Made by a program: the position numbers and the translations under genes. A stretch of DNA of 64,000 nucleotides from Bryobacteraceae bacterium (lineage in GTDB: Bacteria; Acidobacteriota; Terriglobia; Bryobacterales; Bryobacteraceae). A model generated the notes under the pieces. The model did not search any database, was not told the DNA's origin, and saw nothing but the letters and a program-made list of their open reading frames with translations. Where the stretch lies: assembly GCA_025056865.1 (NCBI GenBank), contig JANWVO010000038.1, forward strand, positions 175,587 through 239,586. The letters are read 5' to 3'. Positions 1,103-50,588 of the stretch are shown here, piece after piece. How positions within the stretch are numbered: the first letter of the stretch is position 1; each line of letters opens with the position of its first letter.

Positions 1103-3016
1103 TTACTTCTTCTGATCGTCGACGTCGACAAACTCGGCGTCCACGACGTTGTCTTTCTTCGCGCTCTCGGTCCGGGCGCCGGAGGAGCCATCGCCGGACG
1201 AGGCCTGCTGCGCGCCGGCGGCGCGGTACATCGCCTCGGCGAGCTTGTGGCTGGCCTGCATCAGGCGGTCCTGCGCGGCGCGAATCCGGTCGAGACCGCC
1301 CTGCTCGATGGCCTTCTTCGCCTCCGAGACGGCGTCCTCGAGCGCGCGGGCGTCGGCATCCGAAATCTTGTCCCGATGCTCGCGCAGCATCTTCTCGGCG
1401 CTGTAGACCGCGTTGTCGAGCTGGTTCTTGGCCTCGACCTCCTGGCGGCGCCGCTCGTCCTCGGCGCGGTGCGCCTCGGCGTCGCGCGCCATCTTCTCGA
1501 CCTCTTCCTTCGAGAGGCCCGAAGAAGAGGTGATCGTGATCTTCTGCTCGTTGCCGGTGGCCCGGTCTTTCGCGGTCACGTGCAGGATGCCGTTGGCGTC
1601 GATGTCGAAGGTGACCTCGATCTGCGGCACGCCGCGCGGAGCCGGCGGGATGCCTACGAGCTGGAAGACGCCGAGCAGGCGGTTGTCGCGCGCCATCGCG
1701 CGCTCGCCCTGGTAGACCTTGATCTCGACGCTCGTCTGGTTGTCGCTCGCCGTGGAGAAGATCTCCGACTTGCGCGTCGGAATGGTCGTGTTGCGCTCGA
1801 TCAGCTTGGTGAAGACGCCGCCAAGCGTCTCGATGCCGAGCGACAGCGGCGTGACGTCGAGCAGGAGGACGTCCTTCACTTCGCCGCCGAGCACGCCGCC
1901 CTGCACCGCCGCGCCCACGGCCACCACCTCGTCCGGGTTGACCGTCTTGTTCGGCTCCTTCTTGAAGAACTCGCGCACGAGCTGCTGCACGCGCGGGATG
2001 CGGGTGGAGCCGCCCACGAGCACGACCTCGTCGATCTGCTCCGGCGTCAGCCCGGCGTCGGCAAGGGCCTGCCGGCAGGGCGGAATCGTGCGCTGGATGA
2101 TGTCCTCCACCATCTGCTCGAAGCGCGCGCGCGTCAGCGTCTTCACGAGGTGCTTCGGGCCGGTCTGCGGGTCGCCGTAGATGAACGGCAGGTTGATCTC
2201 GGTCTCCATGGCCGAGCTGAGCTCGATCTTGGCCTTTTCGGCCGCTTCGCGCAGCCGCTGGAGCGCCATGCGGTCCCGCGACAGGTCGACGCCCTCTTCT
2301 TTCCTGAACTCCTCAATCAGCCATTCCACCAGGCGCTGGTCGATGTTGTCGCCGCCGAGATGGGTGTCGCCGTTGGTGGACTTGACCTCGACGACGCCGT
2401 CGCCGACCTCAAGAATCGAAATGTCGAAGGTGCCGCCGCCGAAGTCGTAGACGGCGATGCGCTCCTCCTTCTTCTTGTCAAGGCCGTAGGCGAGCGCCGC
2501 GGCCGTCGGCTCGTTGATGATGCGCAGGACTTCGAGACCGGCAATCTGGCCTGCGTCCTTGGTGGCCTGCCGCTGGGCGTCATTAAAGTAGGCGGGCACC
2601 GTAATGACTGCCTTGGTGACCTTCTCGCCCAGATACGCCTCGGCGGCCTCCTTCAGCTTGGTGAGGATCATCGCCGAGATCTCCGGCGGGGCATACTTCT
2701 TCCCCATCACCTCGACGCGCGCGTCGCCGTTGTCGCCCCGCACCACCTTGTACGGGACAAGCCGGATCTCTTCGGTCACCTCGTCGTAGCGGCGCCCCAT
2801 GAAGCGCTTGATCGAATAAATGGTGTTCTCAGGATTGGTGACAGCCTGGCGCTTCGCCACCTGTCCAACCAGCCGGTCCCCGCTCTTGGTGAACGCGACG
2901 ACCGAAGGCGTCGTGCGCGAACCCTCCTGGTTCGGGATGACGACGGGCTGCCCCCCCTCCATGACCGCTACCACGGAGTTCGTGGTTCCCAGGTCAATGC
3001 CAATAATCTTGCTCAT
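1103..3016 (-). CDS. dnaK: Molecular chaperone DnaK (Hsp70)
   Basis: 637-aa ORF with unmistakable Hsp70 sequence: [26 protein letters not shown], and a full substrate-binding domain and lid. Confidence 0.98.
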
Positions 3017-3084
3017 GACTCTTCCCTTTGCTTCGCTCCGGAATTCTTTTGCAGGCGCCTGGCTGTCTCCGTGCGCCTGTCTGT

Positions 3085-3113
3085 ATTATCAAACTTTAGC
3101 GTATCATTGTCAA
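3085..3113 (-). promoter_or_regulatory. Near-consensus sigma-70 promoter for dnaK (TTGACA-N17-GATAAT)
   Basis: On the minus strand, TTGACA is the complement of 3108-3113. A 17-nt spacer follows, then GATAAT (complement of 3085-3090), about 70 nt upstream of the dnaK ATG. Confidence 0.5.
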
Positions 3114-3164
3114 GTTCCCTCGCCCTGCATTCTGCATAGCCACCCTTGCCTCGCCTTCCCGTTC

Positions 3165-4302: not shown

Positions 4303-4788
4303 TCAGTCTGCGCTCTTGCGGAAAACGGCGATGGCCTCGATTTCCACCAGCAGCTCCGGGCGGCACAGGATGGCCTGGATGCCGGTGGAGGCAGGCAGCG
4401 GGTCGAGACCCTGCTCCTGGTAGAAGCGGGTGCGCTCTTCGTTGAACGCCTCGTAGTCGCGCTCGATGTCGCGCAGGTAGCAGGTGGTGCGGACGACGTC
4501 TTTCCAGGTGGCGCCTTCGCTGGCCAGCAGCCCGGTGATGTTGTGGAACGTCCGGCGCACCTGGGCGCGGAAGTCGCCGATGTGCACGCTGCGGCCGTGC
4601 TCGTCGATGGAGGCCGTGCCGCTGATCAGCAGCACGACGATGTTGCCGAACTCCAGCCGGATGCCGCGGGAGAAGGAGCTGGGCTTTGCGTACTGGTAGG
4701 CCTCGTTGAGGACCTGCGGATTCGAGATGGCCTTTTTCTCGATGGAAACGGCCTTCGCGGCTTCGGCCAGAGCTTCTTCGAGCCTCAT
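4303..4788 (-). CDS. YjgF/RidA-fold (Rid superfamily) protein
   Basis: Internal ATG at 4788, preceded by GGAGG (MRLEEALAEA...). Its start overlaps the upstream stop as ATGA. The ISGTASI motif and the C-terminal YLRD...F and VEIEAIAV segments are typical of the YjgF/L-PSP fold. Subfamily (RidA versus FkbO/Hyg5-like) is not resolved. Confidence 0.8.
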   Translation of the reverse strand: MRLEEALAEAAKAVSIEKKAISNPQVLNEAYQYAKPSSFSRGIRLEFGNIVVLLISGTASIDEHGRSVHIGDFRAQVRRTFHNITGLLASEGATWKDVVRTTCYLRDIERDYEAFNEERTRFYQEQGLDPLPASTGIQAILCRPELLVEIEAIAVFRKSAD

Positions 4789-5798
4789 GATGGAGAAACC
4801 TCCTGCAAAAAGACGGATGAAATGGAACGCCTGCCGGTGGAACCGAAGCGGCTGGCGAGCCGCTCCCGCACGGCAGGCCGGTTCGGCCCGGCTGCCTGAA
4901 TGCATTCTAACAACAGGGCCGTAGACTCATAGGCGAGCTGGAAGAATACGTCGCCTGAAACCTGGAAACGGGCCTCGCCGTCGCGAAGCAGCGCCGCGTC
5001 GGGCGTGGCGAGCGCGGGGGCAAGGACCGGCCTGCGAAGCTGTCCGCGGCAGGCCCGCGACCACGCCGACGGGCCGCAGAAGACCTCGGCGTCCCCGGGA
5101 AGCTCCGCCACGGCGCGACAGAGCGGCGCCGGCGGGGCGAGAACGACGACCACCGGGTGAGAGGGCGCAGGCGGGCGGTTCGGCGGCTGGAAGTCGTGCC
5201 GCTCCGCGGGCTGGAGGGTGCGGCTGAGCACGCGCGCCAACTGGCGCGAGCCGTGGTCGGTGGCGGCCAGCAGCGAGTAGGGCCTGCGGCCGATGGCGCC
5301 GGCGATGGCGCGCGCCAGCAGCGAATCGCCCGGAGCCCAGGAGAAGATCCACGGCACGAAAGCGGCGTTGGCCGTTTCGTCCGTGGAGACGGGATCCACC
5401 ATCGGAAACAGCGCCTTGGCGGCCACCTGTTCTGCCAGGTGCGTGGTGGCGCTGTCGATGCCGCCGACCAGGGCGACAATGCGGTCTTCGAAGGCGAGCT
5501 TCGCCACGGCGGAGGCCCCGGCCCGCCACGGATCGTCCGACCAGCGGGAGAAGAGCCGGAACGGCCTGTCCTCCCCGGACAGGCGGGCGTTGGCGTGCTC
5601 GATGGCCAGAGCGACGCCCATGTAGACCGTGCCACCGGCCGGATGGCGGGGATCGTCCGGACCGAAAAAGCCCAACGGCACGTAATCCAGCTCCCCGGCG
5701 CCGGTCTGCGGCAGCTCGCCGGGCTGTGCGGGCGCACGCCGCCGGTCGATGTACGGCGCCGCCGCCTGCACAGCCAGGAAATGCCGCCGCGTGATCAT
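4785..5798 (-). CDS. Type-1 periplasmic binding protein (LivK/Peripla_BP_6-like), second copy, divergent
   Basis: 337-aa ORF. N-terminus MITRRHFLAV has a twin-arginine-like motif. The core (GVALAIEHANARL...IVALVGGIDSATT...AKALFPMVDPVSTDE) resembles the N-lobe of Leu/Ile/Val-type binding proteins. Confidence 0.65.
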   Translation of the reverse strand: MITRRHFLAVQAAAPYIDRRRAPAQPGELPQTGAGELDYVPLGFFGPDDPRHPAGGTVYMGVALAIEHANARLSGEDRPFRLFSRWSDDPWRAGASAVAKLAFEDRIVALVGGIDSATTHLAEQVAAKALFPMVDPVSTDETANAAFVPWIFSWAPGDSLLARAIAGAIGRRPYSLLAATDHGSRQLARVLSRTLQPAERHDFQPPNRPPAPSHPVVVVLAPPAPLCRAVAELPGDAEVFCGPSAWSRACRGQLRRPVLAPALATPDAALLRDGEARFQVSGDVFFQLAYESTALLLECIQAAGPNRPAVRERLASRFGSTGRRSISSVFLQEVSPS

Positions 5799-5799
5799 C

Positions 5800-7275
5800 T
5801 CACTTCGTTTCGGCAGGGTTCAGCAGGCCGCGGGCGGTGCGCTCGCGCGGCGGGACGTAGCCGCGCGGAATGCCAAGGTCTTCGCGCGAGTAGTAGCGCC
5901 AGCGGCCGCCTTCGAACTTCGCCAGATACACCTCTCCGGCGTCGTCGAGCACGGCGGAGAAGGGGATGTCGCCCGTCACGCCGGGCCACGGTTTGGAGCG
6001 CGTGGCCAGGATGTCGCGGATCTTGGCGCGGTTGAGTCCAGCCACCTGGATGGCCCAGATCAGCATGTTCATGCCGTCGTAGGCGTGGGCGGCGTAGGTA
6101 TCCGGCTCGTCGTTGAAGCGCTTGCGGAAGCGCTCGCGGAACTCGGCCAGCCGCGGGTTGCTGGAATCCGGGTTCCAGGGAAAGCCGGCGATGACGCCCT
6201 CGGCGTGCGGCCCGGCGATCTGGAGGAACTCCTTCGACACGGCCCGGTCCGAGGTGAGAAACGGCTGGTTCAAGCCGCGCTCGCGGAGCTGTTTCAGGAT
6301 GATGGCCGCTTCGCGCGCGTCGCCCCAATGCACGATCACGTCGGGCTTGACCTCGGCGATGCGGTCGATCTGGAGCGAGTAGTCGTCCTGGCCGAGCTTG
6401 TAGGCCATCTCGATGACGACCGGGCGGCCAAGACGGCGGGCCGAGTCGCGGATCTCGCGCACGCCGAAGCGGCCATAGCGGTTGGAGGCGCGGATGATAG
6501 CGATGCGCCTGTAGTCCATCTTGCGGATCATGTAGTCGACCATGAGATAGCCCATCTGGCGGTCGTCGCCGATGCAGCGCATCGTCCAGGGGATGTTGGT
6601 CTCGATGTAGGTGGGGTCGGTGTCGCCCGTGTTCATCACCACGACCTCGGCCTTCAGGGCGACGCGGATGGCGATGTGGGAGTTGGCGCCGTCGATGGTG
6701 CCGAGGATGGCCCAGACCTTGTCCTTGTAGGCGAAGTTGACGATCTCGTTGCCGCTCGAGCCCCAGAGGCCGTTGTCGTTGGTGACCACCAGCTCGAAGG
6801 GGATCCTGCGCCGCAGGTAGCCGCCTTTGGCGTTGGCCTCCTCAATGGCGAGACGCGCGCCCTGGAGCATCTTGATGCCCATCGGCTCCTCGTGGCTGGC
6901 GCCGCCGGTGGCGATGGAGACGGTGCTCATGATGGGGCCGATGAAGCCGATCTTGACGGTCTTGACGTCCTCGGGCTCGGGGATGGCGCGCCCCGGCCCG
7001 TTGTACTGCATCTGCTCGAGGAAGTGCTCCTTGTAAGGCTTGATCTTGCCGTAGGGTTCGTAGTCGATGGGTGTTTTCGCGTAGGACGTCTCGCGCCGCA
7101 GCCGTAGGTCGGGCACCTCGTACGGCCCGACCGAGTTGATCCGGCGGAGCACCTCGAGCGTGTCCTCGTCGACTTCGACGCCGGGAGGCACCAGCGGCTC
7201 GTTGGCAGGCGGCTTCCTGGGCGCGTCGGAGGCGAACAGCACGGTGGCGGCAAGCAGAGGAAGAAGGCGTCTCAT
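5800..7275 (-). CDS. ABC-type substrate-binding protein, LivK/branched-chain amino acid (Peripla_BP_6) family, orphan
   Basis: 491-aa ORF with a signal peptide (MRRLLPLLAATVLFA). KIGFIGPI...GARLAIEEANAKGG...WAILGTIDGANSH...DTYAAHAYDGMNMLIWAI are typical of type-1 PBPs of the amino-acid/amide family. Confidence 0.85.
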   Translation of the reverse strand: MRRLLPLLAATVLFASDAPRKPPANEPLVPPGVEVDEDTLEVLRRINSVGPYEVPDLRLRRETSYAKTPIDYEPYGKIKPYKEHFLEQMQYNGPGRAIPEPEDVKTVKIGFIGPIMSTVSIATGGASHEEPMGIKMLQGARLAIEEANAKGGYLRRRIPFELVVTNDNGLWGSSGNEIVNFAYKDKVWAILGTIDGANSHIAIRVALKAEVVVMNTGDTDPTYIETNIPWTMRCIGDDRQMGYLMVDYMIRKMDYRRIAIIRASNRYGRFGVREIRDSARRLGRPVVIEMAYKLGQDDYSLQIDRIAEVKPDVIVHWGDAREAAIILKQLRERGLNQPFLTSDRAVSKEFLQIAGPHAEGVIAGFPWNPDSSNPRLAEFRERFRKRFNDEPDTYAAHAYDGMNMLIWAIQVAGLNRAKIRDILATRSKPWPGVTGDIPFSAVLDDAGEVYLAKFEGGRWRYYSREDLGIPRGYVPPRERTARGLLNPAETK

Positions 7276-8426
7276 TTGTCTTCCCTCCGGTTTTCGGCCA
7301 GCATGCGCGGGCGCTCGCGCAGGCCGGAGTAATAGCCTTCGCCGATGCCCCAGGCAAGGCCCTTGGCGGTGGCGACGAAGACGTCGCGGTCGTCGACGTC
7401 GATGGCGATGATGAAGTTGTGGGGCAGATTCAGCCCCATCTCGACCGTTTCGAGCACGGTCTTGTCGCGCGTGACGACGGCCTTGCCGGTGTCCGACTTC
7501 GGATCGCGCGTATAGGCGACCCAGGTGTTGGTCTCGGCGTCCATGATGGCGCCCAGCCCCTTGTCGGAGGCGAACCAGGCTTCGCGGCCGCTGCGGGCGC
7601 GGAGGTTGTTGTTGAAGTCCGAGGGCAGGCCGGAGTCCATGTTGTAAAAGCCGCGCCAGTTGCGGCCGTCATAGCGGGCCGCGCCGAAGTAGGAGGACAC
7701 CCAGATGACGCCGTCGACGTAGTTGGCGCCGGTGGTGATGACGTGGATGATGCCGTCGTCGCGGTACAGGTCGATCTCCATCTCGCCGTCGGGGTCGAGA
7801 TAGTCTTTCCAGCGGTTGGTCTTCACGTCGTACTCGAGCACGCCGGAGCCCCAGACGGCCAGGTGGACCTTGCCGTCGCGGTAGTGCACGCCGTAGTTCC
7901 AGATCTCTTCCATCGGCGCGTTCTTCTCGGTGAAGATGGTCCACTCGCCGGTGACGGTGTTGAAGCGGGAGGCGCCGGCGGTGGTGGCGGCCCAGACATT
8001 GTCATTTTCGACGGCGACGCCGTAGACGACGTCGTTGACGAGGCCCGAGTTGAGCTGGTGCCAGTGGTCGAAGCGGCCGCCGCTGAGGCGGGCGAGCCCG
8101 CCGCCGAACAGGCCCAGCCAGACGTCGCCCGTCTTCGGGTCGACGTCGATGGCGGTGACCACGCGCCAGGGCAGCCCGTCCTTCTCCGTCCAGACCTTCA
8201 CTACCCTGGCGGTCTTCTTGTCGATGAGCGCGAGGCCGTTTTCGGTGCCCACCCAGATGCGGTCGCCGTCGCTCTTGACGGCGAAGATGTGGTCGTCGGG
8301 CAGGCCGTCCTTGACCGTGAACTGCTTCCACTTCGTGTAGACATAGGGCAGCTTCTCGGCGCCCGGCTCGGCAGCCAGGGCGCATGCGAGGGCAAGCAGG
8401 AGCAGGCAAGAGGCAGCGTGTCTCAT
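7272..8426 (-). CDS. Secreted stand-alone beta-propeller protein (two-component-regulator-propeller/Reg_prop-like repeats)
   Basis: 384-aa ORF with a signal peptide (MRHAASCLLLLALACALA). It has repeated GLPxD/N..V..I..D..G.iWvGT-type blades (DGLPDDHIFAVKSDGDRIWVGTENGL, DGLPWRVVTAIDVD...VWLG, SGLVNDVVYGVAVENDNVWAAT). ATGA overlaps at both ends. Confidence 0.7.
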   Translation of the reverse strand: MRHAASCLLLLALACALAAEPGAEKLPYVYTKWKQFTVKDGLPDDHIFAVKSDGDRIWVGTENGLALIDKKTARVVKVWTEKDGLPWRVVTAIDVDPKTGDVWLGLFGGGLARLSGGRFDHWHQLNSGLVNDVVYGVAVENDNVWAATTAGASRFNTVTGEWTIFTEKNAPMEEIWNYGVHYRDGKVHLAVWGSGVLEYDVKTNRWKDYLDPDGEMEIDLYRDDGIIHVITTGANYVDGVIWVSSYFGAARYDGRNWRGFYNMDSGLPSDFNNNLRARSGREAWFASDKGLGAIMDAETNTWVAYTRDPKSDTGKAVVTRDKTVLETVEMGLNLPHNFIIAIDVDDRDVFVATAKGLAWGIGEGYYSGLRERPRMLAENRREDK

Positions 8427-11224
8427 AGCGTTTTCAGAAACTCGATCAGGTCGTTGAGCTGATCCTTGGTCATGTCGTTGGTGACCCCGTGCTTGTCGTA
8501 CGGGTTGTACACGGTCCAGATCTCTTCGAGCGTTTTCGCCATCCCGTTGTGCAGGTAGGGCGCGGAATCGTAGATGTTGTTCAGGTGCGGGACATCGAAC
8601 AGCCCGGTGCGGTCGAGCGCCTGTCGGGTGCCGACATCAAAGCGGCGGCGGTTGGTGTAGTAGGGCGCCGGGTGGCAGAAGTAGCAGCGGCCTTCGGGCG
8701 GGATGAGCCTTCCGTCGTTGGTGTGCGTGCGGTAAAAAAGATCTTTGCCGCGGCGCTGCGCCGGCGTGTAGCGCGTGCCGGGCGTGTAGTAGCGGTTGGG
8801 CGGGCGGCGGATGGTGCTGATGTAGTAATCGACGGCGTCCAGCTCTTCGGGCGTGAACGGCAGGTTGCGGGTGAAGAAGACCGAGAGCCGCGCGCCGCAC
8901 TGCCGCTTGAGCGAGGGGTTGGTGCCCTCCCACTTGAACGGCGCGGTGTCGCCGATGCCGCGCAGCGTGCGGTTGTCCACCGGAGAGACGCCGATGCCGT
9001 CCGGCTCGATGTCATACGTAATGCCGTCCACATGGCCGTCGGGATGGCAGGAGTGGCAGGAGTACTGGTAGCGGAAGGTGATCTTCGCGTTGTGGAACAG
9101 TTTCTCGCCCCAGCGCTGCCTGGTGATCTCCTTCGGACCGTTCAGGGAGATCTTGCCGGCCATTTCCAGAGTGGCCAGGTCGATGACGCCGATGGAGTCA
9201 TCGAGGCAGTTGGCGACGTAGGCGCGGCGGCCGTCGGGCGAGATGGCAAGACCGCGGGGGCTGTCTGCGGTCTCGAGGGTCTTGACCAGGAACTCGGCGG
9301 CCTTGCCCAGATGGTTGGGCAGCACGTGCTGCCGCTCGTGGTCGGAAGCGCCCGTGAGCAGCCGTTCCAGGCGCGCCAGGTCGACCACCGCGATGCGGTT
9401 GGTTCCTGAGCTCGTGACCAGCGCGTAGCGGTTGTCCGGCGTGATGCGGACGTCGGTGGCGTCGGCGAAGCCGAGGCCCGGCTGATCCAGCAGCACCTGA
9501 TCGGTGCGCCCGTCGGGCCAGATGATGGCGATGCCGTTGGTGATGGTCCAGCCCTGCAACAGGCGCGTCATCGGCACCAGGTTCTTGGTCCGGTTCATGG
9601 TGGCGATGGCGAAGCGGCCGTCGCGGCGCCAGTCGATGCCCATCATGAGGTTGGTGCCATCGATAAGCCAGCGGTCGCGCACGCGCGCCGTCCGGGCGTC
9701 GATGACCGTCAGCTCGCTCGCCAGCGGCTTGCGGAAGCCGGTGAGGTTGGAATACATGCTGGTGACGAAGATGGTGGCGCCGTCCGGGGCGAGCGCAGCC
9801 TCCCAGGGGCCGCGGCCGGCGGCGAGCTTCTTTTCGAAGGCGAGCGTGCGGGCGTGGAAGACGTGGATGTCCTCCGAGGACGTGTTCAGCACGAGCACGT
9901 GTTCATCGCCCGGCGTGACGATGACGCCGTGGGGCTCGTCGCCGACGCGGAGCGTGTCCACCACCTTGCGGGCGGCGGCGTCGATGACGGTGACGGTGTC
10001 GTCCTCGCGGTTGGTGACGAAGGCGCGGCGGCCGTCGCTTGTGAAGGCGATGCCCGTAGGCTCGCCGCCGGTGCGGATCTCGGCCAGCACCCGCCTTGTG
10101 CGCGTGTCGACGACGGCGACGGCATCGGCGGCGGCCAGCGTCGCCCAGAGCTCGCCCGTGCCGGGACGGAAGGCGAGCCGCAGCGGGTTCTTGTAGCGGA
10201 CCTCCGCTTTCCGCTCGGGCAGTTTCGTCGGGTGCGCGATCAGCTTCCAGGCTTCGGCCGCGTTGAACGTCCGGCCGTGAGCGGGGTTGTGGCAGCTCAT
10301 GCAGTCGGCCAGCGAGCCGCGCTTCAGGCCGGCGGCGCGCGCCGCCTCGGGGTCGCGCATGATCGCGTCGGTGGCATAGTTCTTTCCCGGGCCGTGGCAG
10401 GCCTCGCAGCCGACGCCTTCTTCGGTGCGGCCGCCGACGGCGTGGCAGCGGAGGCAGGCCGGGCTGTGCTGGGGATCGCCCTCCACTTTCATCTCGCGCG
10501 CCAGCTCGGCGGCGCGCGGCGTGGCCAGCACCGCCCAGGCGCGCGCATGCGGGCTGCGCCGCCAGACGTCGTACTGATGGCCGTGATCGAGGCCGTTGTG
10601 GCAGGAGCCGCAGGCCGCGGATCCGATCACGCCGGGCGCGTCCGCTTCGCGGATGGCGCCCACGCGGGACGGCTTCGGCAGCGGATGCGCGATCTGCTTC
10701 CATGCCTCGTCGATGTTGACCGTGGGGTTCTTCAGCACGGCGATATGCGAGCCCTTCTCGAGATGGCAGACGAGGCAGTCATCGCGGGTGGGCATGCGCA
10801 GGCCGGCCGCCATCGCCGCCTTGCGGTCGCGCATCACCGCTTCGGTGGCATACTCGCTGCCCGGCCCGTGGCAGGCTTCGCATTGCAGGCCATCTTCGCG
10901 GCGGAACGTTTCGGGATCCATCTCGCGTTCGTCGGCGCCGAACGCGGTGGAATGGCATCCGAGGCAGATGGCGGCCTTCCAGGGCTCTTCGCGCAGGCCG
11001 CTGATGCGCGCGATTTCCCAGGATTCCGGCCGCGACAGCGCCGCATACGCCTGGGCGTGCTTCGACAGCAGCCACCTACTGTACTGGTGGCCCATGCCGG
11101 GGCCGTTGTGGCAGGTGGCGCATACGCGCGAGCCGACGTAAACAGGCTTCGGCGGCGCCCCGCGGGAGATGAAGACGAGCGGCGCCAGCGCGGCCGCCGC
11201 CATGATCCATGCGACCCTTCTCAC
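8423..11224 (-). CDS. Multiheme cytochrome c (8 CxxCH, c554-like) fused to a YVTN beta-propeller and a di-heme cytochrome c peroxidase/MauG-like domain
   Basis: Lower part of ORF 8423..11776; the upper part overlaps the preceding gene. Proposed start is the GTG at 11224 (GTGA overlap), giving MRRVAWIMAAAALAPLVFI, a signal peptide. The alternative is the ATG at 11203. Ten CxxCH motifs: CATCH, CLGCH, CEACH, CLVCH, CGSCH, CLRCH, CEACH, CMSCH, CHSCH, CYFCH. YVTN-like repeats include TGIAFTSDGRRAFVTNREDDTVTVID. The C-terminus (PHLNNIYDSAPYLHNGMAKTLEE) is typical of the CCP/MauG family. Confidence 0.85.
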   Translation of the reverse strand: MRRVAWIMAAAALAPLVFISRGAPPKPVYVGSRVCATCHNGPGMGHQYSRWLLSKHAQAYAALSRPESWEIARISGLREEPWKAAICLGCHSTAFGADEREMDPETFRREDGLQCEACHGPGSEYATEAVMRDRKAAMAAGLRMPTRDDCLVCHLEKGSHIAVLKNPTVNIDEAWKQIAHPLPKPSRVGAIREADAPGVIGSAACGSCHNGLDHGHQYDVWRRSPHARAWAVLATPRAAELAREMKVEGDPQHSPACLRCHAVGGRTEEGVGCEACHGPGKNYATDAIMRDPEAARAAGLKRGSLADCMSCHNPAHGRTFNAAEAWKLIAHPTKLPERKAEVRYKNPLRLAFRPGTGELWATLAAADAVAVVDTRTRRVLAEIRTGGEPTGIAFTSDGRRAFVTNREDDTVTVIDAAARKVVDTLRVGDEPHGVIVTPGDEHVLVLNTSSEDIHVFHARTLAFEKKLAAGRGPWEAALAPDGATIFVTSMYSNLTGFRKPLASELTVIDARTARVRDRWLIDGTNLMMGIDWRRDGRFAIATMNRTKNLVPMTRLLQGWTITNGIAIIWPDGRTDQVLLDQPGLGFADATDVRITPDNRYALVTSSGTNRIAVVDLARLERLLTGASDHERQHVLPNHLGKAAEFLVKTLETADSPRGLAISPDGRRAYVANCLDDSIGVIDLATLEMAGKISLNGPKEITRQRWGEKLFHNAKITFRYQYSCHSCHPDGHVDGITYDIEPDGIGVSPVDNRTLRGIGDTAPFKWEGTNPSLKRQCGARLSVFFTRNLPFTPEELDAVDYYISTIRRPPNRYYTPGTRYTPAQRRGKDLFYRTHTNDGRLIPPEGRCYFCHPAPYYTNRRRFDVGTRQALDRTGLFDVPHLNNIYDSAPYLHNGMAKTLEEIWTVYNPYDKHGVTNDMTKDQLNDLIEFLKTL

Positions 11225-12873
11225 TGCGCCTTCCTCCGCGCTTCCGCCTTGTGGCGGAGCCTGAGAACCTGATTGGCCCGCACTCCGGCGAGCTTTTCCA
11301 CCACGCCGTCCGGCCAGCGGATCTCGACGTCGCACACCGTGGCTCCGCCCAGCCCGAAATGGAGCCGCGGATCGCCCTGCCCGAGATAACCGCGGACCGG
11401 GTTGACATCCTCCACCATGCGCAGCCCGTTGGCCGCCACCGTCACGCGCGCGCCCACCGCCGTGCGCGAGCCGGTGGGGAAGTCCAGGCGCGCATCCACC
11501 ATCAGCCAGGGACGCGCGTTGCCGCCGTCGTTGCGCAGCAGCACCGGCGCGTCGTTGAGGTTGACTACCAGCAGGTCGATGTCGCCATCGTTGTCCATGT
11601 CGGCCCAGGCGGCGCCGCGGCCGACGCGCTTGGTTTCGAAGTAAGGCCCGGCTTCGCGCGAAACGTCTTCGAAGGTGCCGTTCTGCCGGTTGCGGCTGAG
11701 GCTGTCCTCCTGCACGTACTCGTGGTGCGCGTGGCCGTGGACGGTGAACAGGTCCAGCCAGCCGTCGTGATCCCAATCGAACATCACCGAGCCCCAGCCG
11801 GCGTACTGGCCGAGCAGCGGCGCCAGGCCGGCGGCGTCGTTGAGGTTTTCAAAGAAGCCCTTCTTCGGGTTGTAGACGAAGAGCGACACATAGTTGAGGT
11901 TCGGCACGAACAGGTCCAGCCAGCCGTCGCGGTTGACGTCGCCGTAAAACGGGCCCATCGACGCCACGCCCTGGCCGTGCTCGCTGAAGGCCAGCTCGAA
12001 CTCGAGGCCCTTCTCCGAGAACGTGCCGTCGCCGTTGTTGAGGAAGAAGTAATTCTCCATCGCGTCGTTCGACGTGAACACGTCCATGCGGCCGTCGTTG
12101 TTGAAGTCGGCGGCGGTAACGCTCATGGCGCGCCCGCCCGGCCTCCACATGCCGGCCTCTTTGGTGACATCGGTGAAGGTGCCGTCGCCGTTGTTGCGGT
12201 AAAGGATGCTGGGCAGGCCCTGGTAGCTGAGCGGGCCCGGGTAGCCCTGCGCCGGGTAGAAGTCGCGGAACTTGCCGTCGTCGTACAGCAGATAATTGGC
12301 GACGTAGACGTCCAGCCAGCCGTCGTTGTTGTAGTCGAACCACACGGCATGGAGCGACCAGCGGGCGTCATCGAGGCCGGACTGCTTCGAGACGTCGGTG
12401 AAGGTGCCGTCGCCGTTGTTGCGGTAAAGGATGTTCGGCCCGTAGTTGAGCACGTACAGGTCGACGTCGCCGTCGTTGTCGTAGTCGGCGGCGGAGCAGC
12501 CGGAGCCGTAGACCTTGCTGGCCACGCCGGCCTTTTCGGTCACGTCCTCGAACTTCCCGCCGCCGAGGTTGCGGTAGAGGCGGTTGGAGAGCCTGCCGCG
12601 GAGATCGCGCCCGTCGTTGTCGCTGACGCCTTTGGTCCAGACGCCGGTGACGAAGTAGATGTCCTGAAGCCCGTCGTTGTCGAAATCGAAGAAGCAGGCG
12701 CCGGCTCCCGTGCCTTCGACGATGTTGTCCAGCTTGTGGTCGCCGATGCTGTGGCGGAAGCGGATGCCCGCCGCTTCAGTAATGTCGCTGAACACAGGCC
12801 CGCGCGGCGGAGCCGAAGCGGCCGCCGCCAGCGCCGCCGCCAGCACGGCAGCGTGTCCCACGAGCGCTCTCAT
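11221..12873 (-). CDS. CRTAC1-family protein: FG-GAP/VCBS repeats with C-terminal ASPIC/UnbV domain
   Basis: 550-aa ORF with a signal peptide. It has multiple D.DNDG..D repeats (FDFDNDGLQDIY, ADYDNDGDVDLY, FDYNNDGWLDVY, ADFNNDGRMDVF, DVNRDGWLDLF, DWDHDGWLDLF, DMDNDGDIDLL). The C-terminal GARVTV...RGYLGQGDPRLHFGLG is typical of UnbV_ASPIC. Confidence 0.88.
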   Translation of the reverse strand: MRALVGHAAVLAAALAAAASAPPRGPVFSDITEAAGIRFRHSIGDHKLDNIVEGTGAGACFFDFDNDGLQDIYFVTGVWTKGVSDNDGRDLRGRLSNRLYRNLGGGKFEDVTEKAGVASKVYGSGCSAADYDNDGDVDLYVLNYGPNILYRNNGDGTFTDVSKQSGLDDARWSLHAVWFDYNNDGWLDVYVANYLLYDDGKFRDFYPAQGYPGPLSYQGLPSILYRNNGDGTFTDVTKEAGMWRPGGRAMSVTAADFNNDGRMDVFTSNDAMENYFFLNNGDGTFSEKGLEFELAFSEHGQGVASMGPFYGDVNRDGWLDLFVPNLNYVSLFVYNPKKGFFENLNDAAGLAPLLGQYAGWGSVMFDWDHDGWLDLFTVHGHAHHEYVQEDSLSRNRQNGTFEDVSREAGPYFETKRVGRGAAWADMDNDGDIDLLVVNLNDAPVLLRNDGGNARPWLMVDARLDFPTGSRTAVGARVTVAANGLRMVEDVNPVRGYLGQGDPRLHFGLGGATVCDVEIRWPDGVVEKLAGVRANQVLRLRHKAEARRKAQ

Positions 12874-14204
12874 TTCGAACCTCCGTTGGATATCCAGGCC
12901 GGAGCGGTCAGCTTCACCGGCTTGCGGATCAGCGCCTTCGCCTCGCGGTTCTCCGGCGTCAGCTCGGGATCCTCATGGCAGCCGATGCAGCCGCGGTTCT
13001 CCTTTGGCCGGGTATACATCCAGGCCGAAGTCCGCACGGCGCGGCCCGCCGCGTCCGCAAGCTCCAGCTTCAGCGGCGTGTTGGGGGGCACCTCCAGGTG
13101 GAAGGAGCCGTCGTCCTCGATGCGCAGGTCTCCGATCTTGCGGGGGTTGTCGAACGGAGCCGTGTACACGCGCAGCCGCCATGCCTGGCCCGGACGGATC
13201 CGCTCCGGCTGATCGGTGGTGAAGACGCTGAGGCAGTAGAGCCGGCTCCAGCCGGCGCCTTCCTCCACCACGGATCCGCGGCCTTCCGGCTCGGGGCGGG
13301 CGATTACCGGCCGCGCCTGCCGCAGGTCCGACCCGGGTTTCACATAAACGGGAACTTTTGTTTTATTCGCGGGATGGAAACGGTAGATGCCCGCCGGCGT
13401 CCGGGCATCCGGCTGCCAGCTCACCAGCAGGCGCCCGCCGGGCAGCCCCGCCGGCGTGGAAAAGATGCCGTCGGAGGGGCGCGTCAGCTCGCGGCGCGTG
13501 CGCAGCGGGCGGATGAGATCCACGCTGGCCAGCACGCCCTCGCCGTCGACGAAGACGAGCCTGCCGTCCATCGTCACCGCAGGCTCGCGGAGCTTCTCGC
13601 CGGGCAGATAGAGCGAATAGTCCGTGCCGTCCAGGTTCACGGCCATGATCTGCGAACGCCCGCCCTGCCGGGAGGCGAACACCATCATGCCGTCGGGCAG
13701 CATGGTGGCGTCGGACTCCTGCCACGGCGTGAAAGTGATGCGCTGCCGCAGCGTGCCGTCGAATTTCACCGTGTGCAGCGCTCCGCCGCAGAAGAAGGCC
13801 GCCTGCGGCCAGGGATCGGGAATGTCCAGGCTGAAGATCTTCGACTGGTAAGCGGGCCGGCGGCAGTCGCTGGCCATCTTCGTCAACTGCCGGACGGCGC
13901 CGGTGGCGAGCGTCATCTCGTAGATCTGCCACGGCTCCGCAGCGGTCTTCTTTCCGGCGAACAGGATCCGCTTCGCATCCCAGGAAACATCGGGATCAGC
14001 GGCGGCGAAGAAGCCCTGGCTGAGAAGGCGGACGGCGCCGGAAGCCTCCAGCAGCAGGAGGCGCGGCTGGCCGCCGGGCGGGGTCTCGGTGAACACAATC
14101 GGGTGGCGTCCGCCGCCAGACGGCGCGGGCGCGCCCGCCACGGCCGGTGCGAGCACGGAGAGAGCGAGAATACAGGACCGGAAAATCCTCTTTAAGACCC
14201 GCAC
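12870..14204 (-). CDS. PD40/TolB-like beta-propeller protein with a C-terminal single heme c-binding motif
   Basis: 444-aa ORF, GTG start, signal peptide (MRVLKRIFRSCILALSVLAPAVAGA). PD40-like blades (DPDVSWDAKRILFAGKK...WQIYEMTLATG; MLPDGMMVFASRQ...SQIMAVNLDG). The C-terminal beta-sandwich-like segment ends in RPKENRGCIGCHEDPE. Confidence 0.7.
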   Translation of the reverse strand: MRVLKRIFRSCILALSVLAPAVAGAPAPSGGGRHPIVFTETPPGGQPRLLLLEASGAVRLLSQGFFAAADPDVSWDAKRILFAGKKTAAEPWQIYEMTLATGAVRQLTKMASDCRRPAYQSKIFSLDIPDPWPQAAFFCGGALHTVKFDGTLRQRITFTPWQESDATMLPDGMMVFASRQGGRSQIMAVNLDGTDYSLYLPGEKLREPAVTMDGRLVFVDGEGVLASVDLIRPLRTRRELTRPSDGIFSTPAGLPGGRLLVSWQPDARTPAGIYRFHPANKTKVPVYVKPGSDLRQARPVIARPEPEGRGSVVEEGAGWSRLYCLSVFTTDQPERIRPGQAWRLRVYTAPFDNPRKIGDLRIEDDGSFHLEVPPNTPLKLELADAAGRAVRTSAWMYTRPKENRGCIGCHEDPELTPENREAKALIRKPVKLTAPAWISNGGSK

Positions 14205-14291
14205 TGAAGTCAGTCTATGGGCAACCCGGTCCGGATGCCAATCCGCGCAGGATATTACTGGGAACCGATTAGAAAAAACTGCGCAACCCGG

Positions 14292-14475
14292 TCAGCAGGC
14301 CCCGCACTCCCTCAGCGTGCGGCTTCCCCGTGGGTCGCGGGTCCGGCCAAGGATCAGCATGAGCCGGATGCCCGCCCTGGCGGCGTGGAGCGAGTCGGCG
14401 AACAGGACGCCGCGCTGGCGGAGGCCGCGGCCGCTTCCTTCAACGCCGGAGAGATCGGGCGGGCGGCCAATGGCG
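14292..14475 (-). pseudogene. Duplicated, diverged 3' fragment of the adjacent L-asparaginase gene
   Basis: About 184 nt align without gaps to 14482-14665 (the real 3' end) at roughly 80-85 percent identity by my hand count. The fragment translates to ...GSGRGLRQRGVLFADSLHAARAGIRLMLILGRTRDPRGSRTLRECGAC*, versus the real ...GSGHDLRQRGVLFAGTLNAAKARIRLMLILGRTSDPREIRTLMECGAY*. I found no start codon at its upstream end. Confidence 0.7.
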
Positions 14476-47521: not shown

Positions 47522-48274
47522 TCAGCCGGGCAACTGGAAGTTGTCGCCCAGATAAACGCGCCTCACGTCGGGATCCAGCGCCAGCGCGACGGGCGTGCCC
47601 GCGCGGAAGATGCGTCCCTGGTTGATGATGTAGGCGCGGTCGGTGACCGACAGCGTCTCGCGCACGTTGTGGTCCGTGATCAGGATGCCGATGCCGCGCC
47701 CGCGCAGGTCGGCGATGATCTTTTGCAGCTCCAGCACCTGGATGGGATCAATGCCGGAGAACGGCTCGTCCAGAAGCAGGAACTGCGGGTCGATGGCGAG
47801 CGCGCGGGCGATCTCCACGCGGCGCCGCTCCCCGCCCGAAAGCGCATAGCCGCGGTTCTTGCGCACCGGCTCCAGCCCCATCTGCTCGATCAGCTCCTCC
47901 AGCCGCCGCCGGCGCTCCTCGGGGCGGATGGGCAGCGTCTCGAGAATCGCCATCAGGTTGTCTTCCACGCTCAGCTTGCGGAAGACGCTCGGCTCCTGCG
48001 GCAGATAGCTGATGCCGGCGCGGGCGCGCTCGTACATCGCCAGATCCGTGATGTCGCGGTCGTCGAGGAAAATGTGCCCGGAATCCGGAGAAACCATGCC
48101 GACGATCATGTAGAACGTCGTCGTCTTGCCCGCGCCGTTCGGTCCCAGCAGGCCCACCACTTCGCCGGTGGAGACGCTGACGCTGACGTTGTCCACCACG
48201 CGCCTCTTGCGGTAGGTCTTGCTCACCTCTTCCGTGCGCAGGATGCGCCGGCCGTTGCCCGGAATCGCGCTCAC
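47522..48274 (-). CDS. lptB: LPS export ABC transporter ATP-binding protein
   Basis: 250 aa, GTG start. It has Walker A ([11 protein letters not shown]), [17 protein letters not shown], the signature [15 protein letters not shown], Walker B (LLLDEP) and the H-loop (ITDHN). Confidence 0.93.
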
Positions 48275-48317
48275 CGTCTCCCATTATGCGGCGCGGCCGC
48301 GCCCGGCCGCCGCAGCC

Positions 48318-50588
48318 TCAGTCGCTGCCCTTCTGCTTCACCCGGCTCACCGCCGGGCCCGCGCCCTCGTTGTCGACGGTCATCCGGTCCTGCCGGCCGA
48401 ACCAGGTGATCACCGCGCCGCGCGTCACGCCGCGCTGCTCGTCTTCCACGCTCGGATTGCCGCCGCGCAGCACCATGCGCTCCTCGGCCAGGAAATACTC
48501 GGCATGCTCGCCGCGGCCCGTCCGGCGGCGGCCCCGCGCCCACTCGCGGATGACTACCGCCCCGTCGGCCTCCAGCCGCTCCAGCCGGGTCTCGGCGCGG
48601 CCGTTGGCTTCCTGCTCGGAGAAGAACGCGCGCAACTGCCGGGACTCCACCGTCATCGCCGGCCGCTCCAGCACCACGCCGCCGGCAAACAGCGCCTGCT
48701 TCGCGCGGCCGTCATAGACGAGCGAGGGCGCGCGCACCACGCTCATTCGCGCCGCCGCCCTGCCCTGCGCGCCGCCCCGTTCGTCCGGGATCTCGGCCAC
48801 CACGCTGCCCTCGGCCTCCAGCCGCTCCTGTTCGCGGTCGATCCGCACCCTCTGCCCGCGCAGCCGCATGTCCCCCTGCCAGAGCACGGCGTCGCCTTCA
48901 AACAGAATCCTGCGGTTCTGTTCCCGCGCCGTCATCCGCTGCGCGGTGGCCCGCAGCGGCTCCGACCGCCGCACCAGCCCGCCCCCGCCCTCCTCCTGCG
49001 GCCGCATCACCGACGCCACGCCGCCTTCGGCCACGGTCACGTCCTCCTTCTGGTCGATCCGGATGCGGGGAGCCGATGTCATTCCGGTTTCGTCCCAGAC
49101 GCGCGCGCGGCCCGCCAGTTCGATGCGGTCCGTGCGGGCGTCCAGCCGCGCCTCGTCGGCCGCGGCGCGGCGCGCCTGCTCCTGATACTCGAAGCCGCCC
49201 CACTGCCGCAGCCAGTCCAGCTCGCCGGTGGCCGGGTCAAAGCGCGCTTCCAGGTCGTCGCTGCGCGTGCGCGTCTCCACCGGCTTCGCCTCCTTTTTCG
49301 GAGCGGCGGGCGCGCGGATCGTCAGCGTCTCCGCCTTCGTCGCCCGGAAGGACTCGAGCTGATTTTCCCCCGCATAGCCGAACGTGAACCGCTCCCCCGT
49401 CACCGCGCGGAACGGCTGGCCCGGCGCAGAGGGCCGGAATTCGATCCGGCCCGGGGCCTCCGTCCACACGCGCTCCAGCTCCTCGCCGCCCGCGCGCATT
49501 GCCAGGTGAATCACTTCGCTCGCGAGCGCGCGCGCCGGCTGCGGCGGACGCCCGGGGCGCGCCGCCGGGCGGCTTTCCACGCTCCCCTGCCCCATGGCCA
49601 GCGCGTGGCGCAGCTCGGCTCCCTGCCTGCCCTGCTCGAATTCAAGATCCACGCGGTCGGCGGCCACCTCCATCACGCCCGGCGCGGATGTCGAAACAAT
49701 TTTCGCCCTGCGCGTCGCCTCGATCCTGCTCACCTCCGCCTCCGGCGTGAACCGTACCATCAGCTCGCCGGAGGCGAACTCGAGCCGCCGCCCCGGCATC
49801 CGGTCGGAACCGGACGCCTGCGTCGTCTGCGCATGCTGGAGACGGCCCCCCTCGTCGAGCTTGACGAACGCATCCTGCCCGCGCAGCTCGAATCCGCCAC
49901 GGCGCAGCTCGGAGGGCGCCATCAGAATGACGTCCGCCGTGGCTTCCCTGTAAATGAGCTTGCTGGCGCGGACCTCCAGAGGCGGCCTGCGTCCGTCGGC
50001 GGACGCCCAGCGGAGCTCGGCCTGCGACTCCATCACGATCTCCCGCGCATTCGGATCGTAGGACGCGCCCACGCAGCGGCCGCTGGCCGCGCCGAATGCA
50101 AACTCGGCCGGCTCGGCCGTCCAGGCCCGGTTGGTCTGCGTGTCCAGCGAGACCGCGCGCGTGCGGATCTTCATCACGCGCTCTGGCGGTTCCGCCGGCG
50201 GCCGCCGCAGCCCCAGCGTGATCTCCACCTCGCCTTCCGCCGTCAGCGCGCCCTCGGTCTGCCGGAAGGTGCCCCGCGGGCTGCGCACCAGGTCGTAGCG
50301 CGGCCCGTCCAGTTGGCGGATTTCGATTTCCAGATTCTCCAGGTGAATGACCGGCGGATCCTTCACCTGCTCGAAGTGGCTGGCGCGGACGAGAATCCGG
50401 GACTGTCCTCCGGACTTGATCTCGTACTCCCACTGCGAGGCGACCGCAGCCGTGTTCTGCGGCAGAGGGGCGGGCAACACGGGCCGCTCGGCCAGCCGCA
50501 AGGCGCGCCCGTGCCAGTACACCCAGCCCACCACAGCCGCCACCGCTGCCGTGGCTGCCAGCAACAGCCAGCGAACCCGACGCAGCAT
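48318..50588 (-). CDS. Membrane-anchored LptC-like / multi-OstA(LptA)-domain protein
   Basis: 756 aa with an N-terminal TM anchor (WLLLAATAAVAAVVGWVYW). An LptC-like segment is followed by several LptA/OstA-like beta-jellyroll segments (e.g. RILFEGDAVLWQGDMRLRGQRVRIDRE...LEAEGSV; HAEYFLAEERMVLRGG). It lies directly upstream of lptB. Confidence 0.65.
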   Translation of the reverse strand: MLRRVRWLLLAATAAVAAVVGWVYWHGRALRLAERPVLPAPLPQNTAAVASQWEYEIKSGGQSRILVRASHFEQVKDPPVIHLENLEIEIRQLDGPRYDLVRSPRGTFRQTEGALTAEGEVEITLGLRRPPAEPPERVMKIRTRAVSLDTQTNRAWTAEPAEFAFGAASGRCVGASYDPNAREIVMESQAELRWASADGRRPPLEVRASKLIYREATADVILMAPSELRRGGFELRGQDAFVKLDEGGRLQHAQTTQASGSDRMPGRRLEFASGELMVRFTPEAEVSRIEATRRAKIVSTSAPGVMEVAADRVDLEFEQGRQGAELRHALAMGQGSVESRPAARPGRPPQPARALASEVIHLAMRAGGEELERVWTEAPGRIEFRPSAPGQPFRAVTGERFTFGYAGENQLESFRATKAETLTIRAPAAPKKEAKPVETRTRSDDLEARFDPATGELDWLRQWGGFEYQEQARRAAADEARLDARTDRIELAGRARVWDETGMTSAPRIRIDQKEDVTVAEGGVASVMRPQEEGGGGLVRRSEPLRATAQRMTAREQNRRILFEGDAVLWQGDMRLRGQRVRIDREQERLEAEGSVVAEIPDERGGAQGRAAARMSVVRAPSLVYDGRAKQALFAGGVVLERPAMTVESRQLRAFFSEQEANGRAETRLERLEADGAVVIREWARGRRRTGRGEHAEYFLAEERMVLRGGNPSVEDEQRGVTRGAVITWFGRQDRMTVDNEGAGPAVSRVKQKGSD

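Follow-up and report, generated by a model that had tools for sequence, protein, structure and literature searches.

A seven-gene operon of a Bryobacteraceae bacterium with predicted homologues of the hydrazine synthase subunits and conserved propeller and binding-protein partners

The subject of this analysis is a run of seven genes, here called g1 to g7, on a 64-kb stretch of DNA from a Bryobacteraceae bacterium (contig JANWVO010000038.1, positions 175,587 to 239,586), which we will refer to as the window. From the list of open reading frames (ORFs) and the sequence of the window, one can see that these genes lie head to tail on the minus strand, running from position 14204 down to 4303, and that their products include likely relatives of all three subunits of hydrazine synthase (HZS), the anammox enzyme. 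Profile searches were made against Pfam, using its gathering scores, and against NCBIfam, using its equivalog cut-offs, and solved structures were searched both by sequence and by fold. The genes are as follows:

12870-14204, minus strand: g1, exported HzsA-like subunit, 444 amino acids, GTG start
11221-12873, minus strand: g2, exported CRTAC1-like FG-GAP/ASPIC propeller protein, 550 amino acids
8423-11224, minus strand: g3, exported decahaem fusion, 933 amino acids, with the same GTG start as in the identical NCBI protein
7272-8426, minus strand: g4, exported stand-alone Reg_prop-type propeller, 384 amino acids
5800-7275, minus strand: g5, exported LivJ/Atu2422-type binding protein, 491 amino acids
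4785-5798, minus strand: g6, divergent g5 paralogue with a binding-protein fold, 337 amino acids
4303-4788, minus strand: g7, cytoplasmic YjgF/Rid-fold protein, 161 amino acids

Read directly from the sequence, start and stop codons overlap as ATGA at 12870-12873, as GTGA at 11221-11224, and again as ATGA at 8423-8426, 7272-7275, and 4785-4788, and the junction between g5 and g6 reads TGAGATG (5796-5802), with a 1-nt gap at 5799. Overlaps of 4 nt are also common at the junctions of related loci. Sec-type signal peptides are found on g1-g5 and a Tat-like one (MITRRHFLA) on g6; g7 has none. Motif reading gives one CxxCH in g1 and ten in g3. The original prediction, which was made from the letters of the sequence, had placed all seven ORFs, the overlap sites, and the gap exactly where we find them; its six exported products out of seven agree with the signals on g1-g6, and its domain calls for every gene were recovered by profile searches, as were its single CIGCH in g1 and its ten CxxCH motifs in g3.

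The product of g1 is, as far as sequence and a structural model can tell, a truncated homologue of HzsA, with a TolB-type six-bladed propeller followed by an HZS_alpha middle domain that carries one c-type haem site. It scores 63.6 bits against Pfam HZS_alpha (gathering score 26.6), and its closest solved relative by sequence is HzsA of Kuenenia (5c2v_A), found in three collinear stretches with an E value of 2.9e-18; it is followed by TolB at about 1e-7. The same chain is the top Protein Data Bank fold match of the AlphaFold 2 model (mean predicted local distance difference test, pLDDT, of 83), covering propeller and middle domain with an E value of 1.3e-25 and a template-modelling (TM) score of 0.74 on the query, whereas the TolB fold match (1e-13) covers the propeller only. 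NCBI names the homologue in Paludibaculum fermentans 'HzsA-related protein'. The haem site lies in the following feature:

12975-12989, minus strand: haem-binding motif CIGCH of g1, residues 406-410, inside the pattern W..R.KE.RGCIGCHEDPE..P.N

This whole pattern is invariant across the g1 family, and its CIGCH aligns with the CSGCH of HzsA that contains His587. The roles of active-site residues in HZS are taken here from two studies, according to which the iron of haem alphaI in HzsA sits on Tyr591 and the His587 of the CxxCH motif has swung to a Zn that it shares with Cys303 (PMC12758564, PMC12607021). Of these residues, g1 lacks the Tyr and the Cys: there is no Tyr among the 34 residues that follow its CIGCH, nor in the aligned family consensus there, and the region of the Zn-site Cys303 (HzsA chain residue 276) falls in an alignment gap, being deleted from g1. 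The C-terminal domain of haem alphaII is also missing, as the protein ends 34 residues past its only CxxCH.

Longer g1 homologues elsewhere retain a C-terminal CxxCH or CX4CH domain (alignment A2, loci L001-L081). Those of Planctomycetota have about 670-760 residues and two CxxCH motifs, and most of those of Acidobacteriota have 570-690 residues and end in a domain that carries CX4CH or CxxCH; in the clade of the window and in Paludibaculum the protein has 410-460 residues and one haem, without the C-terminal domain. The alpha-like subunit thus appears, from these sequences, to be reduced stepwise toward the Bryobacterales.

By sequence, the g3 product is best described as a single ten-haem protein in which two c554 modules, a propeller of the HzsB type, and a di-haem domain of the HzsC type are fused. 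It is 100% identical to an NCBI entry from a metagenome-assembled genome (MAG), 'hypothetical protein NZR01_10450 [Bryobacteraceae bacterium]', and ten CxxCH motifs are found in nearly every complete homologue, the sole complete exception (L066) having nine. Its parts are:

10715-11149, minus strand: tetrahaem c554-like module 1 of g3, approximately residues 26-170, CxxCH at 35, 87, 115, and 150, matching the Cytochrome_C554 profile
10235-10642, minus strand: tetrahaem c554-like module 2 of g3, approximately residues 195-330, CxxCH at 205, 257, 273, and 308, the second Cytochrome_C554 match
9155-10198, minus strand: HzsB-like seven-bladed YVTN propeller of g3, approximately residues 343-690, matching the YNCE/YVTN profile
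8426-9127, minus strand: HzsC-like di-haem domain of g3, approximately residues 700-933, with CHSCH at 723-727 (gammaI type) and CYFCH at 847-851 (gammaII type)

Cytochrome c554 (1bvb) aligns over residues 195-287. The propeller, residues 346-683, matches HzsB (5c2v_B) end to end, over residues 14-349 of 352, with an E value of 7.9e-29, and its model matches the HzsB fold with an E value of 1.4e-31 and a TM score of 0.90 on the target. Invariance in g3 was called on an alignment of 19 diverse homologues (A1), in which the most conserved stretch is an invariant insertion loop of this propeller, KNLVPMTRLLQGWTITN (residues 547-563). The loop aligns with the blade-6 insertion loop of HzsB, and has a low pLDDT when modelled in isolation. 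At the Mg-binding Glu of the HzsB loop, the two candidate Glu residues align with R554 and L556 of g3, given a deduced offset between chain and residue numbers.

Searched alone, residues 700-933 match HzsC (5c2v_C) with an E value of 1.5e-17, followed by the cytochrome c peroxidase (CCP) 1iqc at 6.6e-7, MbnH (6e1c) at 1.9e-6, and MauG at 0.018. The original prediction had allowed that this domain might turn out to be an ordinary bacterial peroxidase; since it is far closer to HzsC than to the best peroxidase or MauG match, we conclude that it is not. The wider proposal, that an HZS-like module set occurs here in a non-anammox, Acidobacteria-like context, is borne out by sequence and fold matches to HzsA and HzsB and by the sequence match to HzsC.

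In alignment A1, both haem motifs of this domain (CHSCH and CYFCH) and Q775 are invariant, as are three further positions of the gamma-type pocket. C776 corresponds to Cys165 of HzsC (chain residue Cys126), the third, haem-linking Cys; W765 stands at the position of His144; and R779 stands at that of Asp168, a residue implicated at haem gammaI (PMC12607021). W765 and Q775 also correspond to the inter-haem Trp and the distal Gln of CCP (FWDGR...EQA of 1iqc, 3o5c, and 1zzh), and T785 lies at the position of the catalytic Glu of CCP (GVEM motif) in the alignment with 1zzh, in a weakly aligned stretch. That glutamate of the peroxidatic pocket we take to be Glu114 in Pseudomonas numbering. With HzsC and CCP residues mixed in this way, the pocket is a mosaic of the two.

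Arrangements such as this should be judged against their relatives. A GTDB scan with one genome per species gave 431 confirmed stretches that encode a g3 relative, and there are at least 1200 g3 protein-cluster matches at E<=1e-10. The carriers include Bryobacterales and Solibacteraceae, the cultured Paludibaculum fermentans being one of these, as well as Pirellulales, Thermoguttaceae, Phycisphaerae, Sedimentisphaerales, and Verrucomicrobia. The sample used for locus comparisons has 81 members, namely 80 of the 431 scan stretches and L081, which came from an exact-sequence look-up; a look-up of this type with the g3 of the window itself gave no match. Counts of colinearity are limited to the 57 loci in which enough flanking sequence is available on either side of the cluster. 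All 57, which come from Acidobacteriota, Planctomycetota, and other groups, have g1-g5 in the same order on a single strand, so that the arrangement is not due to chance, and g6 was detected in 53. In short, g1-g5, usually with g6, travel together and are translationally coupled. The comparison of gene order across phyla for which the original prediction had called finds it kept in Acidobacteriota, Planctomycetota, and Verrucomicrobia. Identity across phyla is 55-93% for g2-g5 (57-90% for g2 and 63-93% for g4) and approximately 40% for g6. The locus of P. fermentans (L008) is colinear with that of the window and its g3 is 66% identical. No recurrent flanking neighbour, be it a permease, an ATPase, or a fixed regulator, was seen in more than 10 of the 81 loci.

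One interpretation is that of a genuine hydrazine synthase in a cryptic anammox acidobacterium, which is how Jiang et al. read the HzsA-like genes of ten phyla in 2025 (PMC11828985). Homologues of all three subunits are indeed present and adjacent, a beta-gamma fusion is known from Scalindua too, and the equivalent of Cys165 is kept; the residues on which the reaction depends are not. The alpha-like subunit has no Tyr after its CxxCH, no Cys303 region, and no haem alphaII, the gamma-type domain has Trp for His144 and Arg for Asp168, and neither candidate Glu of the beta loop is a Glu. The NCBIfam hydrazine synthase equivalog cut-offs are missed 4- to 10-fold for all four models, with scores of 80.2 against 800 for alpha, 181.8 against 1250 for the BC fusion, 130.9 against 560 for beta, and 75.9 against 625 for gamma. 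Within the 64-kb window, which is as far as this statement reaches, no other ORF has more than one CxxCH, and there is thus no HAO/HDH-like multihaem partner. The cluster is also found in ordinary heterotrophs such as P. fermentans, and Hagglund et al. rejected the idea on the same grounds (PMC12758564). We consider it very improbable, and have rejected a true hydrazine synthase on the active-site residues and the equivalog scores.

Another proposal is a periplasmic di-haem CCP that is fed by the octahaem part and detoxifies hydrogen peroxide (H2O2), the other proteins serving as scaffolds. The invariant CCP-type Trp765 and distal Gln775, the weak similarity to the CCP_MauG and RoxA-like families, and the aerobes and facultative anaerobes among the hosts (PMC8407742) would all suit such an enzyme. 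The score against Pfam CCP_MauG (PF03150), however, is 21.1 bits and under the gathering score of 25.6, HzsC is the closest solved relative by ten orders of magnitude, Thr785 takes the place of the catalytic Glu, and a haem-linking Cys is not a feature of CCP. As five strictly co-inherited partners would also be superfluous for a simple peroxidase, we regard this explanation as unlikely.

The same similarities raise the question of a maturase like MauG or MbnH, in which the di-haem domain would oxidise a residue on g2, g4, g5, or g6 and so make a protein-derived cofactor, the partner being the real enzyme or binding protein. The known systems of this type, MauG and MbnH, act on proteins encoded beside them, and in our cluster the partners are strictly co-inherited and highly conserved; a Trp lies between the haems as in MauG, and there are NCBIfam matches as well as the weak similarities to MbnH and MauG given above. 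Eight extra haems and an HZS-type alpha subunit are unexpected where only an oxidant is needed, though, the similarity to HzsC is far above that to MauG or MbnH, and no candidate target motif was identified. This makes a maturase improbable in our view.

The remaining genes are best introduced in order. The g2 product scores 191.7 bits against FG-GAP_3 and 74.5 bits against UnbV_ASPIC in Pfam, and matches human CRTAC1 (9etn) with an E value of 5.8e-21. That of g4 scores 27.8 bits against Reg_prop and matches the BT4663-type sensor domain 4a2l (E 7.2e-27), a periplasmic domain of Bacteroides hybrid kinases; the kinase and regulator domains of hybrid two-component sensors are not joined to this propeller of 384 residues, and, of 4174 relatives at E<=1e-20, the 120 closest are stand-alone exported proteins like g4 itself.

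The g5 product scores 155.4 bits against Peripla_BP_6, matches 3ip5 with an E value of 1.5e-23, and is most similar to binding proteins for amino acids and gamma-aminobutyric acid (GABA). It has a conserved N-terminal extension of approximately 100 residues, and over 68 loci one third of its residues are at least 95% conserved. At three positions that we take to be the amino-acid-contacting ones of LivJ/Atu2422, it retains Thr, Tyr, and Asp, and the retention of these ligand contacts suggests that an amine or amino-acid-like co-substrate is possible. The match of g6 to Peripla_BP_6 is 43.8 bits and covers the N-lobe only (residues 60-195). The motif Y.GPGR..PEP....IG[FY].GP is common to the g5 extension and most g6 homologues, and the g6 of the window has lost it. 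In the clade of the window, g6 carries a Tat-like RR signal in which the hydrophobic region is weak; a twin-arginine signal is also found in some other Bryobacterales (SRREFLAAL in L081, for example), with L005, L008, and L081 among the homologues concerned, and a Sec signal in most other loci, so the export route appears to have switched within the family. In an uncultured Pirellulales MAG (L048, 6888-9467), g4 and g5 form one in-frame ORF of 859 amino acids in which the g5 signal peptide has given way to a short linker, a small hint that the two may cooperate physically. A second candidate fusion, in L043, was rejected after a stop codon was found between the genes, leaving that of L048 as the only real one.

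Binding proteins of this fold bring to mind an ATP-binding cassette (ABC) importer. Import by g5 and g6 was rejected, as no cognate permease or ATPase lies beside the cluster in the window, in the Pfam-annotated L081, or recurrently in the flanks of the 81 loci. According to the original prediction no permease or ATPase gene occurs anywhere in the window, which holds for the LIV type; one ABC ATPase does exist, the lptB-like gene at 47522-48274. It adjoins a gene for a 756-amino-acid LptC/LptA-domain protein (region 47522-50588, minus strand), is the only ABC ATPase signature of the window, and has no relation to g5 and g6. On the evidence of the sequence, then, the cluster is neither a hydrazine synthase nor a transporter.

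The last gene, g7, scores 69 bits against Ribonuc_L-PSP and matches HI0719 with an E value of 1.3e-10. At the position of Arg105 of RidA we found 39 Ser (g7 and 38 homologues), 5 Val, and 1 Arg, the last being E. coli RidA itself, and pairwise alignments agree; the E. coli sequence used as the reference is assumed to be correct. The Rid gene is placed after g6 or before g1 in Acidobacteriota, and is weak or absent in Planctomycetota. Of the earlier description of g7 as an imine-deaminase-fold protein, the fold stands, whereas the deaminase reading is undermined by the missing Arg, the missing signal peptide, and its weakness or absence in Planctomycetota.

The operon is flanked by dnaK and by genes for an alpha/beta hydrolase, an asparaginase, and an OmpL-like porin, and by thiD. 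The asparaginase gene lies 277 nt upstream of g1 (stop at 14482, g1 start at 14204). Between the two there is a degenerate duplicate of the asparaginase 3'-end (14292-14469, minus strand, approximately 178 nt and 82% identical, covering roughly the last 59 codons), which is still in frame and has its own TGA (…GVLFADSLHAARAGIRLMLILGRTRDPRGSRTLRECGAC before the stop). A T-run and the following feature lie downstream of it:

14212-14241, minus strand: sigma-70-like TTGGCA-18-TAGACT just upstream of the g1 start, candidate operon promoter

No other match of this kind occurs between 3900 and 15800, and as shuffled sequences also give a single match, this one is suggestive only. The original prediction had placed the operon directly downstream of the asparaginase gene, from which it is in fact separated by the 277 nt just described; a functional link between the two was rejected, because the association is lineage-specific, being found in the closest relatives only, and a gene remnant and a promoter-like site, with a likely terminator, lie between them.

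These observations bear on a version of the amine/imine idea of the original prediction, an oxidative amine or amino-acid dehydrogenase in which the binding proteins deliver an amine, the haems oxidise it, the c554 modules export the electrons, and the Rid protein handles the imine. Cytochrome c554 is an electron acceptor in Nitrosomonas, g5 is nearest to amino-acid and GABA binding proteins with what are presumably the right Thr, Tyr, and Asp contacts, and a Rid-fold gene is attached to the cluster in most Acidobacteriota. The Rid protein nonetheless fits poorly: none of the cluster-linked ones has the Arg105 of RidA, the want of a signal peptide places it in a different compartment, and it is weak or absent in Planctomycetota. 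The cluster also has no quinone or flavin cofactor domain, and its tie to the asparaginase gene has been discounted above. Such a dehydrogenase would, in our judgement, be a surprise.

As for regulation, Rfam gave no match to a riboswitch or other known RNA, and neither FNR/CRP nor Fur boxes were found upstream of the operon in 67 loci. Sigma-54-like -24/-12 sites were found upstream in 9 of the 67, against approximately 5 in shuffled controls, which is not convincing; good matches of this type, for example TGGCATGGCATTTGCC, precede the first gene in a few loci of Acidobacteriota (L037, L047, L054, L039, and L062). PadR-like regulators occur in the flanks of 10 loci and response regulators in those of 8. 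Extra CRTAC1-like FG-GAP/ASPIC genes are found near the cluster in approximately 10 of the 81 loci (L064, L075, and 8 others; also L027 and L078), some of them inside very large TPR-containing proteins and mostly on the opposite strand. Annotators of the window should also be aware of an ORF of 630 codons (1247-3139, plus strand) that scores 592 bits against Pfam NAD-GH ('NAD-specific glutamate dehydrogenase') and is antisense to dnaK (1103-3016, minus strand, Hsp70 898 bits). We take NAD-GH to be a family built from sequences antisense to Hsp70 genes, that is, an artefact, and on this assumption the ORF was not counted as a gene.

What kind of system do these genes make up? That they encode a periplasmic redox complex homologous to HZS is very probable. 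Going further, we lean, by a modest degree, toward a soluble, multi-subunit periplasmic haem enzyme that is built on the HZS scaffold, works reductively, and has accessory propeller and binding-protein subunits; that the chemistry is specifically the reduction of an N-oxide is a tentative suggestion that we consider less likely than not. Under the reductive scheme, the products of g1-g6 would form one periplasmic complex, presumably with the two tetrahaem modules of g3 accepting electrons from periplasmic or membrane cytochromes. The electrons would reach the gammaI-type haem by way of the gammaII-type one and the CCP-type Trp765; the gammaI-type haem would have His727 as its ligand, a probable cross-link to Cys776 (predicted), and Gln775 and Arg779 nearby. 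A small oxidant would be reduced there; homology points to nitric oxide (NO) as the best guess, with hydroxylamine or peroxide as other candidates. As in the tunnel of HZS, the product would then be processed or released by the propeller loop (QGWTITN) and the His-ligated alpha-like haem (CIGCHEDPE), which would be incapable of the Tyr/Zn-dependent comproportionation that yields hydrazine. The g2 and g4 propellers and the g5 and g6 binding folds might be stoichiometric accessory or substrate-delivery subunits, with g5 perhaps presenting an amine or amino-acid-like co-substrate.

Several observations weigh against this reductive scheme and should be kept in mind. The c554 modules can equally carry electrons away from an oxidising site, and no quinol dehydrogenase or other electron-input module is present in the cluster or recurrent in the flanks of the 81 loci. 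With Arg for the Asp168 of HzsC and Thr for the Glu of CCP, neither known chemistry is simply transferable. The g1 product is the least conserved part of the system (32-78% identity) and is shrinking in the lineage of the window, and an alpha-like subunit that is variable and shrinking weakens a two-site tunnel model. The haem domains of g3, finally, are modelled at a pLDDT below 50, leaving the propeller alone usable.

A bolder version of the reductive scheme may be worth stating, although we give it little chance. Here, the products of g1-g6 would form a new type of periplasmic machine that transforms nitrogen compounds: the cross-linked gammaI-type haem would reduce an N-oxide, and the alpha-like haem would join the resulting intermediate to an amine or amino-acid-type co-substrate brought by the orphan binding proteins. 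The reaction would form an N-N or N-X bond or be without precedent in some other way, and the system would be the living relative of the ancestor of anammox HZS. If true, this would mean N-N or N-X chemistry in hundreds of Acidobacteriota and Planctomycetota of soil and water.

For a long time, to our knowledge, no relatives of hydrazine synthase were recognised. Clusters of the type described here are its nearest kin and are very common in heterotrophs of soil, peat, and water; knowing their reaction would show the chemistry from which anammox evolved, and could reveal an unrecognised periplasmic step in the turnover of NO, hydroxylamine, or peroxide. A dispute in the literature is also at stake, in which one group sees anammox in ten new phyla and another rejects this on active-site residues.

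One system with which the operon may be compared is the HzsABC of Kuenenia stuttgartiensis (5C2V). Both have an alpha propeller with an alphaI domain and a seven-bladed beta propeller whose blade 6 bears an insertion loop, and the di-haem domain of the gamma type has the extra linking Cys in each; in both the genes are adjacent and the products have export signals. They differ in that the alpha haem of the window would have canonical His ligation, with no Tyr591, no Cys303, and no alphaII, and in that its gamma-type domain has Trp for His144 and Arg for Asp168. The gene order is reversed (alpha first), the beta and gamma parts are fused and have eight more haems, there are four more conserved partners (g2, g4, g5, and g6), the host is a non-anammox heterotroph, and the window has no HDH-like gene.

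The CCP/MauG/MbnH superfamily shares with the g3 domain the di-haem fold, the inter-haem Trp, the distal Gln, and the C-terminal P(Y)xHxG ligand motif. The g3 domain is set apart by its score below the Pfam gathering value, its Thr for the catalytic Glu, its HzsC-type Cys, and its fusion to a propeller and an octahaem part.

Genes comparable to those of the window have been described from several phyla. Dalcin Martins et al. in 2023 reported hzs-like genes outside the Brocadiales, in Phycisphaerae and KSB1 MAGs, and suggested a broader family with other substrates (PMC10732223). In 2025, Jiang et al. described a 'previously undescribed HzsA' from ten phyla, one of them Acidobacteriota, which they read as anammox potential, and in this cold-seep study hzsA-like transcripts were reported from several phyla, again with Acidobacteriota among them (PMC11828985). 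By their description, these genes are like those of the window in having an HzsA-like gene directly upstream of a fused HzsBC-like gene, Sec signals, and non-Brocadiales hosts; unlike ours, they were discussed as signs of possible new anammox bacteria.

The same architecture as that of the window was published by Hagglund et al. in 2025 (Genome Biol Evol) as the clade I hydrazine synthase homologues and judged not to be that of hydrazine synthases, with Paludibaculum fermentans, Syntrophobacter fumaroxidans, Thermogutta terrifontis, Aquisphaera giovannonii, and Opitutus terrae as examples (PMC12758564). The original prediction knew of no characterised system of this composition. That holds for function, as neither a functional test of the cluster nor a proposed function for it is given in PMC10732223, PMC11828985, or PMC12758564; it does not hold for the cluster type as such, which these three papers described bioinformatically in 2023-2025.

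Novel in our comparison, as read from the sequences, are the Reg_prop propeller as a constant member of the cluster, the Rid protein without the RidA Arg, mainly in Acidobacteriota, the reduction of the alpha subunit in Bryobacterales, and the CCP/HzsC mosaic of the gamma active site. The Reg_prop propeller and Rid genes are not mentioned in the main text of PMC12758564, which within clade I notes a short one-haem alpha subunit for O. terrae only; we find one in the window and in P. fermentans.

Clade I and the window have much in common. In both, an alpha-like gene precedes a CRTAC1 FG-GAP gene, which is followed by a fused beta-gamma gene; the two c554 domains of the latter account for eight extra haem motifs, and two genes for ABC-type binding proteins lie downstream. 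In both, too, Cys165 is kept, Trp stands for His144, and Tyr591, Cys303, and the beta-loop Glu are missing (PMC12758564). Nothing essential differs between them, and the structural conclusions that Hagglund et al. reached independently for clade I are the same as ours. The window is thus no new type of system; it is a clean and complete example of a known one, which confirms the published description and sharpens which of its parts are constant.

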